38,744 nucleotides of DNA, from the IMG/VR virus record IMGVR_UViG_2703719354_000025; one strand, written 5' to 3'. Under the pieces are notes generated by a model. That model had not been told where the DNA came from. It worked only from the letters and a program-made list of their open reading frames with translations, and made no database searches. Positions 5,559 through 37,212 of the stretch are shown here, in pieces (within the stretch, counting starts at the first letter, position 1; every line of letters begins with the position of its first letter). The stretch comes from a virus (lineage: Duplodnaviria > Heunggongvirae > Uroviricota > Caudoviricetes). The position numbers were made by a program, and so were the translations under genes.

Positions 5559-5861
5559 GTAAAAAGAGCGGTACCAGCCGGAAGCAAGTGTACAAACTGG
5601 TACCGCGAGGACTACACACAGCATAAAGTTGTGGTGCCGGGTGCCTCCCGGTGCCTGGCGAAAGTTGCACACCAGGCGGGTGGGTATCCACAGAAGGTCG
5701 ACTGTCAGCCTCAACCTTAACCCGCGTGCGCTGAGCCGCATTCACCACAACGCTAAGGATTCTCTCTGGTTGAAAATACTTAGCTGTTATGTGCCTGTCT
5801 TTTCACCACTTCAGGCTCGGTGGTATCTTGGTGTTTTCATATAGCCAAGAAGGAAATAGTT

Positions 5862-13014: not shown

Positions 13015-13362
13015 ATGCGTGATATGTATGAAGTGATGGATCGTTGGGGAGCTTGGGCTGCTTCAGACAATAGCGGAGTGGACTGGCAACCGGTAGCCGC
13101 TGGCTTCAAGGGGCTTTTACCTCATGGCAAAAAGTCCCGGATTCAGTGTGATGATGATGAGGGGCTCATGATCGATGGGTGCGTAGCTAGATTAAGAAAG
13201 TACAAACCAGAAGAGTATGAATTAGTTATAGCCCATTTTGTGGTAGGGATTTCATTGCGAGCCATTGCTAAGAAGAGAAAGTGTTCGGATGGGACTATCA
13301 GGAAAGAGTTGCAAACATCGCTTGGTTTCATTGAAGGCATTGTTTGCACTCTTGCCTGTTAA
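13015..13362 (+). CDS. late-gene antiterminator Q (small QuuD-like Q family)
   Basis: ATG at 13015 with GGAG upstream (the ORF-track start at 13000 is TTG); C-terminal HTH-like ELVIAHFVVGISLRAIAKKRKCSDGTIRKEL; positioned just upstream of the late promoter/terminator and lysis genes. Confidence 0.6.
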   Translation: MRDMYEVMDRWGAWAASDNSGVDWQPVAAGFKGLLPHGKKSRIQCDDDEGLMIDGCVARLRKYKPEEYELVIAHFVVGISLRAIAKKRKCSDGTIRKELQTSLGFIEGIVCTLAC

Positions 13363-13383
13363 CTATTCTTAACTGTCTTCTAG

Positions 13384-14268
13384 TTATATTGGGCGCTTTG
13401 AATTCGATTTAAAGCGTCTTCCACTTATCCCTGAAATCCAAATGTCTTCCTCAAGAAAGTCAAGAAGGGCTTTTATTTCTTTTTTTGATGAAGGCATGAC
13501 AATTTTCTCAACACCGCCAACTATTATGGTTTGTAAGGGGAAATTGACTTTAGCAGCTTCGGATTTAAACTTTGACATATTTTGGGGTGTTAGCATCCCA
13601 GTCTGATTTATTAGTGTTACTTTATTTCTTATCACTGTATCTGCAACGGATTTTAGATCAAAACCTTGGGGAGTAGAAAATACACTAAGTTGACTAAATG
13701 CATTAAGTTCTTGGTCAGTAGCAGCAGAAAAATAGGACGACATGTCAAAAATGCTTCTTAGATTAAAGAAACTCTTAAATCGTATTGTATCATTGATAAT
13801 TATTGCAACTAGTTTATCATCAACATTAAAACCGATGCTATTAGCTTTACTAAAGGTAGTTTTGCTTGCAAAAAGCTTTCCAAAGAATGATTTTGAGGTA
13901 TCTAAGATTTGTTTTTTGTTGAAGGTTTGTAGCGCAATAATATTGGGGTTTGCTGGCGCGTCAACACCAACAAATAATGCTTTAATATAACCAATATCAA
14001 TTTGGCTGGGATCCCAGACAGGCACGGCGGTAGGCCTATTGACTGCGTCAATCAGGCGTGCAGAATCAGTAAAGTTTTGTATTTCAAAACACTCACTATG
14101 TTTTGGTGTATAACCGGCATAGAATGGTATCATATTGTTATGATGACTTTCAAAATATTGACGCTGTTGTTGGAAAATGGCCGTAACAGAAGTACTTGCT
14201 GTTGCATCAAGTTCGACTCTAACAATTCTCGTTGCAATTGTATTATCTATTACTGCAAAAAGTGCCAT
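13384..14268 (-). CDS. unknown 294-aa soluble protein, AT-rich moron gene (downstream gene of a 2-gene cassette)
   Basis: ATG at 14268 with AAGGA RBS; 5-bp gap from the upstream membrane gene; AT-rich codon usage; no motif recognised. Confidence 0.6.
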   Translation of the reverse strand: MALFAVIDNTIATRIVRVELDATASTSVTAIFQQQRQYFESHHNNMIPFYAGYTPKHSECFEIQNFTDSARLIDAVNRPTAVPVWDPSQIDIGYIKALFVGVDAPANPNIIALQTFNKKQILDTSKSFFGKLFASKTTFSKANSIGFNVDDKLVAIIINDTIRFKSFFNLRSIFDMSSYFSAATDQELNAFSQLSVFSTPQGFDLKSVADTVIRNKVTLINQTGMLTPQNMSKFKSEAAKVNFPLQTIIVGGVEKIVMPSSKKEIKALLDFLEEDIWISGISGRRFKSNSKRPI

Positions 14269-14273
14269 GGTTA

Positions 14274-14795
14274 TTATCCTTTAACATGTAGAAATGTGTA
14301 GTCTGTTAATTGAATAACTGTAAATTTGATATCTTTAATATCAGTAATGACTGATTTAGAAATCAATACAAAACCTACGCCGGTGTCATCTTCAGCTTCG
14401 TAAAATTTATAACCGATAAGTGACAATACTGGGTTAAAGTTATAGTTCTCGGAAAAGCTGATGTAAAATAACAATGACAAATAAAAGAATAACGCATATG
14501 CTTTATTTTCAGCAATAGAGTCTGTTCCTAGGAGAGGGAATAAATAGCTTAAGAAATAATTAGTTACTTCTTTGTTAGCGGGAGAAACTGAACTAATATT
14601 TTTTGTCAGAGGTTCAAGTTGTTTCTCAGCATATTGAATCAGGCCTATTGCTAATAACCAACTTGCTATGCCAACGCATAAGCTATATTGCATCAGCCAA
14701 ACCGTATCTTTTACATATCCAATAAAAAATAGAGTTGCGCAAACAGGTGCAATTGAGCTTGCTGTTAATAATAAGCGTGCTAATTTGTTCATCAT
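14274..14795 (-). CDS. unknown 173-aa integral membrane protein (about 4 TM helices), AT-rich moron gene
   Basis: ATG at 14795 with AAGGA RBS; four hydrophobic stretches (LLLTASSIAPVCATLFFIGYV, YSLCVGIASWLLAIGLIQY, NYFLSYLFPLLG, AYALFFYLSLLFYISF) followed by a soluble C-terminal tail of about 55 aa. Confidence 0.6.
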   Translation of the reverse strand: MMNKLARLLLTASSIAPVCATLFFIGYVKDTVWLMQYSLCVGIASWLLAIGLIQYAEKQLEPLTKNISSVSPANKEVTNYFLSYLFPLLGTDSIAENKAYALFFYLSLLFYISFSENYNFNPVLSLIGYKFYEAEDDTGVGFVLISKSVITDIKDIKFTVIQLTDYTFLHVKG

Positions 14796-14954
14796 GATAT
14801 CCTTTGTACTGTTTATGCATACAGCACTTTACATCATGTACTCCAAAGTATCTATCTTGTGAAGAATCTTACACTAAATACTACAGAAAAAGTTAACGCG
14901 TACGCAAAAAGTATTATATCGTGTTAAGAGTGGTTACTTCGCCACACAGCTTAA

Positions 14955-14985
14955 ACCCGCCATTGAGCGGGTTTTGTCGTTTTTG
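14955..14985 (+). terminator. tR'-like rho-independent terminator downstream of a probable Q-dependent late promoter
   Basis: CCCGC-CATTGAG-CGGG stem-loop followed by TTTTGTCGTTTTT, about 140 bp upstream of the holin start; candidate promoter elements in 14890-14925 (TTAACG ... TATATC). Confidence 0.55.
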
Positions 14986-15125: not shown

Positions 15126-15452
15126 ATGCCTCATAACCCAAATACCTGGCTGGAGTTGGTCCAGAGCTGGTGGCGTGGAGACACACCGCTGGGCGCAGTG
15201 ATTATGTCGATCGTTATGGCTGGCTTGCGCATTGCCTATTTTGGCGGTGGTGGTGGCTGGAAGCGAAAAACGCTCGAGATTTTGCTCTGTGGCGCTTTGA
15301 CGCTGACCTTTGCATCCGCTCTTGAGTATGTCGGATGGCCTAAATCGCTTTCTGTTGCCATTGGTGGCGGTGTTGGGCTGATCGGTGTCGATGCTATTCG
15401 TGGGGCTGCAATGCGAGTAATCGGTAACAAATTTGGTAGCACGAAGGAGTAA
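15126..15452 (+). CDS. holin
   Basis: 108-aa protein with hydrophobic segments and charged C-terminus, immediately upstream of the endolysin. Confidence 0.8.
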   Translation: MPHNPNTWLELVQSWWRGDTPLGAVIMSIVMAGLRIAYFGGGGGWKRKTLEILLCGALTLTFASALEYVGWPKSLSVAIGGGVGLIGVDAIRGAAMRVIGNKFGSTKE

Positions 15453-35266: not shown

Positions 35267-35445
35267 TGAGCGATATTTATGCAGTCGTACAAAATGGTGT
35301 CGTTACAAATCTTGTTGTATGGGATGGTAAGTCAGAGTTTAAGCCAGAAAAAGCGGATATAGTTAAATGTGTTGGAGATGTTGGTATTGGCTGGTCATAT
35401 GACGGTAAAAAATTCATCAAGCCTGAAGATAAAACCGCGCAATAG
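35266..35445 (+). CDS. small protein downstream of the tail fiber (59 aa)
   Basis: ATG at 35266 overlaps the fiber stop (TAATG); too short for a typical tail fiber assembly protein. Confidence 0.4.
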   Translation: MSDIYAVVQNGVVTNLVVWDGKSEFKPEKADIVKCVGDVGIGWSYDGKKFIKPEDKTAQ

Positions 35446-35456
35446 CGCGGTTTTAT

Positions 35457-36476
35457 TTATTTTACTGCTAAAATTCGTTTTCTTAGCATCAGCTCTAAAG
35501 GCTCCTCAACTAATTTATAAAGTATGATTGAGACTATGGTTATTATAACAAGGAGCGCTATTAAATAGAGTGGTCCGGGGTTATGTCCAAAGATTTTAAA
35601 GCAAAATAATATAATGGGTTGATGAATTAAATAAAAAATAAATGATGATTTCCCTAATAGCTCTAGGGTTTTTGAACTGAGGATAGTATGAATGACTCCA
35701 TTTCTTAGATAGATGCATGAAGTAAAGAATATTACCATGGGGAGTAAATAATATAACGAATAACGTAGACTATTATTTATGTTGTTGCTATAATATATAG
35801 CTATTAGCAGAGGTAATAGTGAAATTAAAAACAAAAGGCTGTCGACTGTCTGCTGTCGGCTGTTTTTCCAGCAAGCGTAAATAATCATGCCGCAAATAAA
35901 TTCTACCAAGCGGCTTACTGGGAATATATAATATAACCAGTGATTAAGTTCTTCTGTTTGTATAATTTTTAAAAAATATATAGTTAATAGTAGAGTTATA
36001 ATTGATATTGCAGTGATTACTTTCTTTGTAATTGATGTATAAATCAACGGAATAAACATTAAATAAAAAAACAGCTCATCAGACAAAGACCATGATACAC
36101 CATTTAATGAGAAGTAGTAATCCTCCTTTGGTATCCAACTTTGCATTAATAAAATATTTGTTAAGGTTTTTGAAAAATCAAAGTTCTTTAAGTGAATGGT
36201 TAGTAAAATAAATGGCATGGCTAATAATAGATGCATTGGAACAATTCTTGCCAATCTTAAAAGAATAAACTGTCTTTTACTTGTTACTTCATTTTTTAGC
36301 TTGTCTTCATATGAATATGAAAGAATGAAGCCAGATAAAATAAAGAAAAAGGAAACGCCAATAAATCCCTGGGAAAACATTTCTTTTACAAAAACACCAA
36401 AATAGTCTGTATTTAAATGGCATAAATAAACCATTAATGCAGCTATAAATCTGAGTCCTGTTAAGTGGCGAAGCAT
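35457..36476 (-). CDS. acyltransferase family 3 membrane protein (O-antigen/LPS acetyltransferase-like)
   Basis: Polytopic membrane protein with the acyltransferase-3 N-terminal pattern (RHLTGLRFIAALMVYLCHL...); start set at the ATG at 36476 with GAGG RBS (the ORF-track start at 36506 is TTG). Very AT-rich. Confidence 0.8.
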   Translation of the reverse strand: MLRHLTGLRFIAALMVYLCHLNTDYFGVFVKEMFSQGFIGVSFFFILSGFILSYSYEDKLKNEVTSKRQFILLRLARIVPMHLLLAMPFILLTIHLKNFDFSKTLTNILLMQSWIPKEDYYFSLNGVSWSLSDELFFYLMFIPLIYTSITKKVITAISIITLLLTIYFLKIIQTEELNHWLYYIFPVSRLVEFICGMIIYACWKNSRQQTVDSLLFLISLLPLLIAIYYSNNINNSLRYSLYYLLPMVIFFTSCIYLRNGVIHTILSSKTLELLGKSSFIFYLIHQPIILFCFKIFGHNPGPLYLIALLVIITIVSIILYKLVEEPLELMLRKRILAVK

Positions 36477-37212
36477 CAATAACCTCTTGTTATGAAGATA
36501 AAGCAATTCAAAAGAGGCATTTTATGACTGTAGGGGATTGGTGTCTATATGAATGAGTAATCTGGTTTTTAAAATCTTCTTTAATTACAAAATAAACCTT
36601 TCTTAGGCTATAGATTTGTGGCTGTAACACTGTGTGTCCACGACATTGAGACATCCTTCCGCTTTGCTATAGATGTGGAATTCAGGATCAAGCGATATCG
36701 GACTCATCCTCAGCACCACCCGGTTAATCTGGATAACGGGAGAAGGGAAGCGCTGCCAGAAGATGATGATGGTTACAGTTCTGCACTGGCTATTCTGCAC
36801 TGGCTATATTCGTGGTGATCACTTACATAATTAATGACGCCAGGAATACGGAGTTTGATGATTGCCTGGTGATGTGAGAAAAAACTCATACACACAAAGC
36901 TTTGAACTGGATTGCAAGGCTTTGTGCTATTCGATAGCACGAGTTTGAATGAAAATCAGCCGTTATCGATTTTACGTATTTTTGTATGAGAGGATTTTTA
37001 CCTCCTCCCACCGATCCTCCATAACTTTACGACACTGTCTCTAGGACTGCTATGTGCCAAGAGCGGAATTTTCTAATATTATGCTGCATTCGTTTAAGGG
37101 GAGCAGATCAGCTAACGACTCCTACGTCCTGGGGAAAGGTCACATATGCTAAACAGCAGCTCAGCAAAGAGAAGAGCGAATTTGGTAACGGGAAACCGTT
37201 ATGATATGAATA

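Follow-up and report, generated by a model that had tools for sequence, protein, structure and literature searches.

The 38,744-nucleotide stretch of viral DNA analysed here (IMGVR_UViG_2703719354_000025; hereafter the window, whose coordinates are used throughout) carries on its minus strand an AT-rich two-gene cassette that is almost certainly a Kiwa anti-phage defence system (KwaA/KwaB). The Kiwa identity was already known; the one new observation is a conserved palindrome resembling a LexA operator immediately before the ribosome-binding site of kwaA, and it suggests that DNA damage switches the cassette on. Taken as a whole, the reading that we regard as very likely is that of a Kiwa system from a short, divergent clade, carried as prophage cargo and very probably a member of the SOS regulon.

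A putative LexA operator upstream of kwaA

The cassette consists of two intact minus-strand open reading frames (ORFs), called at 13384..14268 (294 amino acids) and 14274..14795 (173 amino acids) and separated by 5 nucleotides (TAACC). For kwaA the second ATG, at 14792, is the most likely start and would give a protein of 172 amino acids instead of the 173 encoded from the ATG at 14795, since the Prokaryotic Genome Annotation Pipeline (PGAP) annotates it and every homologue begins there. The elements of the operon are the following:

14274..14792, minus strand: kwaA, membrane component of Kiwa, 172 amino acids (ORF, PADLOC, AlphaFold2 with Foldseek, KwaA profile)
13384..14268, minus strand: kwaB, soluble DUF4868 effector of Kiwa, 294 amino acids (ORF, PADLOC, Pfam, Foldseek)
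14800..14804, minus strand: kwaA ribosome-binding site AAGGA, 7 nucleotides before the ATG at 14792 (direct sequence reading)
14277..14281, minus strand: kwaB ribosome-binding site AAGGA, within the last kwaA codons and 8 nucleotides before the ATG at 14268
14807..14826, minus strand: predicted LexA box TGCTGTATGCATAAACAGTA, directly upstream of the kwaA ribosome-binding site (consensus match)
14826..14854, minus strand: weak candidate kwaA promoter, with −35 TAGATA at 14854-14849, a 17-nucleotide spacer and −10 TAAAGT at 14831-14826 (permissive scan)

The palindrome first surfaced in an alignment of four upstream regions. CTGT-N8-ACAG occurs once in the whole window, where 0.28 occurrences are expected, and the site agrees with the LexA consensus TACTGTATATATATACAGTA at 8/8 core positions and 16/20 positions overall. 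We counted a box wherever the core reached at least 7/8 and the whole site at least 15/20 against this consensus. Scored identically, the Escherichia coli K-12 boxes give 16/20 for recA, 15 and 14/20 for lexA, 17/20 for sulA and 18/20 for umuD, and the Kiwa boxes over threshold give 15–18/20.

The site is conserved in orthologous promoters. A box lies within 70 nucleotides of kwaA in 17 of the 18 other genomic loci, which span eleven genera and encode KwaA proteins 39–86% identical to the one studied here. The background in the same loci is 4 boxes per 149 kb, one of them beside a dinI gene, and shuffled upstream zones contained a box in 7 of 20,000 cases. Viral contigs gave a similar picture, with boxes in 36 of 39 distinct upstream regions (30 different box sequences) and 5 boxes in 226 kb elsewhere in those loci. 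Two of the three exceptions look like lesions: in one (L056) the upstream region has been replaced and the half-site AAACAGTG remains, and in another (L090) the spacer measures seven bases instead of eight (N7). The third, from Avibacterium (L101), has a weak box with a 7/8 core and 13/20 overall. The sister subtype found in E. coli also has the box, there in a non-phage island. As an observation in its own right, Xenorhabdus sp. TCT-1 harbors four identical short Kiwa loci (L019, L020, L021 and L027), all with the same LexA-like box, TACTGGTTTTTTATACAGTC.

In a comparison of 38 upstream regions that differ substantially, the arms of the palindrome hold 1.51 bits per position and the flanks, which are unalignable, hold 0.16; the derived consensus is TACTGTatata.AtACAGTa. 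In most loci a −10-like hexamer (TATACT, TAAAGT or TATATT) adjoins the 5′ arm of the box or shares bases with it, and in the window the box overlaps the probable −10 and transcription-start region. Because the first bases of the box complete this hexamer, bound LexA would be expected to occlude the promoter. On these grounds the kwaAB operon is probably repressed by LexA: LexA bound at the box would keep basal expression low, and RecA-stimulated self-cleavage of LexA would lead to induction. SOS is the condition in which prophages of the community, this one included, would be induced and phage pressure would rise.

Promoters of the other cargoes found in the same prophage slot (described below) have no LexA box, so the slot as such would not confer SOS control. 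The Kiwa operon of a Pseudomonas Pf phage has no LexA box either, and none was seen near the ribosome-binding site in two canonical-type enterobacterial loci, the two loci to which the comparison with canonical Kiwa extends. SOS and LexA go unmentioned in the main mechanistic study of Kiwa (PMC11785009), and full-text literature searches linking Kiwa and LexA returned nothing relevant; a conserved LexA operator at a Kiwa promoter thus looks new for this system. We also consider it likely, with somewhat less assurance than for the operon in the window, that a LexA operator is part of the cassette throughout the short clade and places the clade in the SOS regulon. Defence would then be raised when DNA damage induces prophages across the community, and in this prophage at its own induction; with no terminator detected and transcription converging on Q, the switch might also modulate the late genes of the prophage itself.

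The cassette is a divergent Kiwa system

Both proteins are recognized by the Kiwa models of PADLOC. KwaA matches PDLC00216 at 1.9e-83, with residues 1–172 aligned on a 173-position model, and KwaB matches PDLC00225 over its full length at 2.3e-150. In Pfam, residues 108–281 of KwaB match KwaB/DUF4868 (PF16162), scoring 31.7 bits where the gathering score is 26.3. The NCBIfam model for KwaA (NF041622) detects homology at 5e-12, its 46 bits standing against an equivalog cut-off of 100, and the KwaB equivalog model (NF041623) gave no match for the protein in the window. Although these cut-offs are not reached, membership of the Kiwa families stands because PADLOC, Pfam and the protein folds support it. 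Judged by its sequence, the cassette belongs to a short, divergent and mainly enterobacterial Kiwa clade that is homologous to canonical Kiwa and separate from it, rather than an equivalog.

Structure models, built with AlphaFold from alignments of homologues, were judged decisive for the identity. The KwaA model (predicted local distance difference test, pLDDT, 77) has helices at residues 2–27, 31–58, 77–95 and 97–113, a strand at 62–71 and four C-terminal strands; a beta element in the loop that follows helix 2 and a beta region at the C-terminus correspond to the published description of the KwaA protomer (PMC11785009). The seven best Foldseek matches in the PDB are all solved KwaA chains (9mrg, 9mrr, 9mrx), at a probability of 1.00, template modelling scores (TM-scores) of 0.51–0.69 and 17–19% identity, and the first match to a protein other than KwaA has E = 0.43. 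KwaB, modelled at pLDDT 81 and free of hydrophobic segments, gave six top matches that are all solved KwaB (9mrx_D, 9nyu, 9mtn), with a probability of 1.00 over about 300 columns, TM-scores of 0.51–0.56 and 10–13% identity; the next match has a probability of 0.04. For the two models together, the next matches outside Kiwa have E values of at least 0.08.

The model indicates that KwaA is a four-pass membrane protein in which an intracellular loop and the C-terminus form a beta-barrel. This topology rests on the structure model because hydropathy by itself yields two segments: only two stretches are strongly hydrophobic on the Kyte-Doolittle scale, and helix 3 is weakly so. KwaB agrees with the Kiwa description of a soluble protein with a C-terminal DUF4868 domain and a Rossmann-like N-terminal domain. 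Basic residues that are invariant in the clade, such as R171, R214, K216, K266, K291 and R292, are candidate DNA contacts.

Searched against the PDB with single sequences or narrow profiles, neither protein reached a Kiwa chain, nor did the KwaB of the Pf phage. The link to solved Kiwa came solely through the fold search and a broad 50-sequence KwaA profile, headed by the protein from the window, which matches the PDB entry "Kiwa protein KwaA" at 6e-15.

An earlier note on this DNA, written from the sequence without database searches, anticipated much of the above. Its description of two co-oriented minus-strand genes, 5 bp apart and each with its own AAGGA, holds in every sequence-level statement, and the AT-richness that it reported corresponds to a guanine-cytosine (GC) content of 34.6% for kwaA plus kwaB against 51.3% for the remaining window, with a sharp fall at both edges. 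It described a 173-residue protein with four hydrophobic helices: the four helices appear in the AlphaFold2 model, hydropathy finds two, and the length is more likely 172. The proposed Kiwa (KwaA/KwaB) architecture was borne out by the full-length PADLOC matches, by Pfam KwaB above threshold and by exclusive fold matches, and the check that the note suggested, with PADLOC, DUF4868 and Foldseek on AlphaFold models, returned Kiwa families exclusively. The pair was also said to be perhaps divergent or undescribed. Divergent it is, but it is not undescribed, as a PADLOC subfamily model and RefSeq names show. The loose resemblance to RexB/RexA found no counterpart in the PADLOC and Pfam scans.

The cassette is indeed already known: RefSeq names its genes, and the PADLOC model is specific to the subfamily. 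PGAP uses the name "Kiwa anti-phage protein KwaB-like domain-containing protein", more recent annotations use "KwaA family protein", and PHROGs contains both the KwaA and the KwaB family under the label "unknown function".

Nor is the short clade rare, as far as sequence searches indicate. Of 5,426 complete E. coli genomes, 33 carry the same DNA at identities of at least 99%, and a further 38 carry the sister subtype, about 67% identical. An exhaustive search with the KwaA profile gave 1,184 clusters at 50% identity; the best 150 of them are nearly all of about 170–180 amino acids and comprise short-clade proteins only, with no canonical sequences. When 50,697 phage records were searched by megablast with the cassette, matches were confined to the flanks; tblastn with KwaB found two phages, PfAC02a (OR790968) and ST846-OXA48phi9.1 (MK416021). 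A 135-residue fragment of canonical KwaA, taken from the PDB alignment, had no match in viral contigs and four in plasmids, from which two usable enterobacterial loci were obtained. One locus (L104), on a Salmonella 7.6-kb "plasmid" (NZ_CP149254.1), has canonical-type kwaA and kwaB among lambdoid nin-region genes and looks like a phage fragment; it shows a strong LexA box at a divergent dinI-like promoter and a weaker box 287 nucleotides upstream of kwaA.

Both ORFs are unbroken here and in every locus compared, and the order kwaA then kwaB is constant across all homologous loci. Purifying selection on both genes is strong, with ratios of nonsynonymous to synonymous substitution rates (dN/dS) of about 0.04–0.24; the value is about 0.04 against the Klebsiella orthologue, where synonymous sites are saturated. 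Two E. coli strains deserve mention: ES10 (NZ_CM184320.1) has an ISL3-family element, ISKox3, within the interval corresponding to 13300-14950, and in A27 (NZ_CP028748.1) the length of the cassette is off by one nucleotide.

Exchangeable cargo between Q and the presumed late promoter

The cassette lies in a well-delimited region of the prophage, between the following features:

13015..13362, plus strand: antiterminator Q (PF06530 at 154.6 bits; PGAP annotation)
about 13329..14890, no strand assigned: exchangeable AT-rich cargo slot (homology lost against sister prophages)
14894..14975, plus strand: conserved 82-bp block, presumed late promoter and terminator module (cross-prophage identity; hairpin)

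In sister prophages (L002-L006) the DUF968-Q and holin-endolysin flanks are 89–96% identical, and homology breaks down in between. BLAST places the left breakpoint at 13116 or at 13316-13328, that is, inside the 3′ end or the last codons of Q, and the right one at 14869-14922. In place of Kiwa, sister E. coli prophages carry a TIR protein, a KAP NTPase, an SDH/Clp-fold protease, a TIGR04255 protein, a methyltransferase, an ATP-binding protein, a pair named by PGAP "anti-phage protein" and "nucleoid-associated anti-phage protein", or hypothetical proteins and uncharacterised pairs. The cargo is always on the minus strand, and several cargoes are defence-like. This pattern of sequence exchange identifies the Kiwa cassette as swappable prophage cargo in a moron hotspot.

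In all sister prophages the 82-bp block to the right keeps 86–95% identity, whichever genes lie downstream, and it is also found in phages mEp460 and SfII. It includes a terminator-like hairpin followed by a T-run at 14953-14974 (plus strand), and a lambda-family holin starts at 15126. We take the block to be the Q-dependent late promoter with its terminator, a function suggested by its sequence and position. Since the cassette precedes this shared block, it would lie upstream of the late transcript; it converges on Q. The stop codons of Q and kwaB are 21 nucleotides apart (13363-13383). Downstream of kwaB no intrinsic terminator was detected, and transcripts of the Kiwa operon may therefore continue into Q in antisense.

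The map drawn in the earlier note stands in its main lines: Q ends at 13362 (PF06530), the hairpin (14953-14974) and the holin (15126) lie downstream, and the place is a prophage cargo slot, filled in sister prophages with other, partly defence-like genes. Its statement that the two genes are antisense to late transcription has to be corrected, given that they precede the 14894-14975 block and converge with Q and its read-through. Its comparison with the stx-type cargo site is a loose one, the slot lying upstream of the late promoter block.

The association with Q extends well beyond this prophage. Q converges on kwaB in 54 of the 69 IMG/VR contigs that carry the short clade, and it adjoins kwaB in Klebsiella prophages, in one sequenced Klebsiella phage and in Enterobacter and Serratia loci. 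The short clade also occurs in integrase-flanked islands of Salmonella and of E. coli, where the island is near fim.

Alternative explanations

Several points weigh against the reading of a short-clade Kiwa under SOS control. On the side of identity, the two proteins share only 10–19% of their residues with the solved ones, the NCBIfam equivalog cut-offs already mentioned are not reached, and our literature search found no experiment of any kind on the short clade. On the side of regulation, LexA binding and damage inducibility are deduced from sequence alone, and many of the loci are related by descent, though their spacers differ. Because the footprint was aligned on best consensus matches, the information content of its arms is inflated; the shuffle and background controls indicate that the arm matches do not come from this selection alone. 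Finally, a standard scan revealed nothing convincing as a sigma-70 promoter of kwaA, and the candidate from the permissive scan is weak, particularly in its −35 element.

The rival that we take most seriously, while considering it unlikely, accepts Kiwa but denies the palindrome a role as a working LexA operator: the system would be constitutive in the lysogen, driven by its own promoter as the earlier note supposed, and the motif would be the site of another regulator or have no function. In its favor, Kiwa operons with their native promoters protect cells without SOS induction in a study that does not mention SOS (PMC11785009), the Pf-phage Kiwa and two canonical-type loci do without a box near the ribosome-binding site, and the kwaA promoter candidate is weak. 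However, the CTGT and ACAG arms stay fixed before the Shine-Dalgarno sequence in about 38 differing upstream regions in which spacers, flanks and synonymous sites have diverged. The consensus derived from them is that of LexA, with scores equal to those of genuine K-12 boxes, and the shuffle and background controls exclude a chance origin. A second proposal, which is compatible with SOS-controlled Kiwa but which we find rather improbable as the principal explanation, is that the phage, more than the host, benefits from the cassette, through SOS-induced superinfection exclusion during the prophage's own lytic cycle; convergent transcription might then delay late genes. The arrangement of kwaB and Q, convergent with stops 21 nucleotides apart and no terminator detected between them, its recurrence in 54 of 69 viral contigs, and a LexA box that would couple expression to the inducing signal are all in line with such a role. 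Against it, the cassette with its box is also found outside prophages, in the Salmonella island and in the E. coli island near fim, and these island copies argue that SOS control goes with the cassette itself rather than with its position beside Q.

Readings that dispense with a functional Kiwa altogether fare much worse. It is hardly credible that the genes are a Rex-like abortive-infection pair, or an undescribed membrane sensor/effector pair unrelated to Kiwa. The general layout, a small membrane protein and a soluble protein of about 300 amino acids encoded by a prophage, would fit, but PADLOC and Pfam scans recovered Kiwa families only, and in the fold searches the two models matched solved KwaA and KwaB exclusively. 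RexA and RexB gave no match in the Pfam and PADLOC scans (at E ≤ 1, the only other match being an insignificant one to DUF7027) or in the fold searches. We rejected this reading on the PADLOC matches, the fold matches and the match of the KwaA profile to the PDB. Equally far-fetched is the idea that horizontally acquired DNA is decaying here and no longer functional. The AT-rich, foreign composition, the insertion sequence beside the cassette in one strain and the one-nucleotide length difference in another could be taken that way, yet the ORFs are intact, identity is at least 99% in 33 genomes, and the ribosome-binding sites and the putative operator are conserved. The pseudogene reading was rejected on dN/dS values far below 1.

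Expected mode of action and related systems

What Kiwa would do in this lysogen is transferred here by homology from characterized systems; what was observed is identity and fold. Kiwa was counted in 9,582 genomes in a 2025 study of its mechanism and structures, with about half of the loci on mobile elements, prophages included (PMC11785009). The same study showed, for five other operons, that protection extends to phages and to conjugation and that both genes are needed, and that the operons, with native promoters, protect without SOS induction. By analogy, KwaA would be a four-pass inner-membrane protein with a cytoplasmic beta-barrel, its tetramers joining KwaB dimers in a membrane supercomplex (PMC11785009). 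The complex would sense the membrane disturbance caused by phage attachment or DNA entry, upon which KwaB would bind the incoming DNA through DUF4868, replication forks would stall, late transcription would be blocked and the cell would survive. Lambda Gam, which binds and antagonizes KwaB and for which RecBCD competes (PMC11785009), would be expected to act likewise here; no gam is annotated in the syntenic prophage of strain TUM14664. By our own reasoning, induction of the resident prophage is not expected to trigger Kiwa, because no entry event takes place.

Canonical Kiwa (E. coli O55:H7 RM12579 and ECOR strains; 9mrg, 9mrr, 9mrx, 9mtn, 9nyu; PMC11785009) shares with the cassette the kwaA-kwaB operon, a KwaA with four transmembrane helices and a beta region, and a KwaB with an N-terminal domain followed by a C-terminal DUF4868; both of our models match its structures exclusively. 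Its proteins are longer (KwaA 195 against 172 amino acids, KwaB 315 against 294). The short clade differs further in its putative LexA operator by the ribosome-binding site, unseen in the two canonical-type loci, and in its strong tie to the Q-side slot of lambdoid prophages. The Pseudomonas filamentous phage PfAC02a (OR790968) carries a member of the same short clade, with a KwaB 33% identical; this phage-borne copy differs in that it belongs to an inovirus, stands beside Shosta-type genes (ShosA/ShosT) and has no LexA box. Klebsiella phage ST846-OXA48phi9.1 (MK416021) carries another member, with a KwaB 47% identical, the same Q-to-holin slot and a LexA box, its Kiwa genes being annotated merely as hypothetical.

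Coupling of defence to DNA damage is not without precedent. The closest that we found is the regulon of the WYL protein DdaA in Moraxellaceae, in which the damage response is coupled to Zorya, restriction-modification and CRISPR-Cas, on the rationale that damaged DNA sets off the induction of prophages and outbreaks of phage (PMC12392091). In both cases a damage signal would raise defence expression; the difference is that the regulator here would be classical LexA, with its operator inside a mobile two-gene cassette and with neither a linked dedicated regulator nor a WYL activator. CBASS (cyclic-oligonucleotide-based anti-phage signalling system) controlled by CapH/CapP is another damage-responsive defence. 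As for the location, P2/P4 hotspots (PMC9122126) and lambda rexAB likewise have a conserved backbone flanking a variable defence slot, whereas the present slot lies between Q and the late promoter, its cargo is always on the opposite strand, and its left junction falls in the last codons of Q. We found no description of this slot in a literature search that was not exhaustive.

Other features of the window

A second island, more AT-rich still (35401-36600, GC 29–31%), follows just after the tail-fibre region. Its ORF (35457..36506, minus strand) encodes a 349-residue multi-pass Acyl_transf_3 protein (PF01757, 2.2e-30), the type of O-antigen acyltransferase that temperate phages bear for serotype conversion. 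Beside the integrase end lies a tRNA-Thr (CGT) gene at 1369-1444, which corresponds to the tRNA-Thr adjoining proA in TUM14664 and is presumably the attachment site. In the early-left region, 5559-5781 (minus strand) matches the Rfam small RNA STnc100, at a score barely above gathering (48.5 against 47 bits).

Implications

The identity of the cassette adds little by itself, Kiwa being among the most abundant defence systems and already labelled in RefSeq. The slot between Q and the late promoter, with its many cargoes, some of them uncharacterised, may be a good hunting ground for new defence genes. If the LexA operator works, it would exemplify clearly how a mobile defence cassette can be tied directly to the classical SOS response. 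It would also offer a simple handle on when Kiwa is expressed in natural lysogens, and it would bear on predicting how susceptible bacteria are to phages under SOS-triggering antibiotics such as fluoroquinolones.

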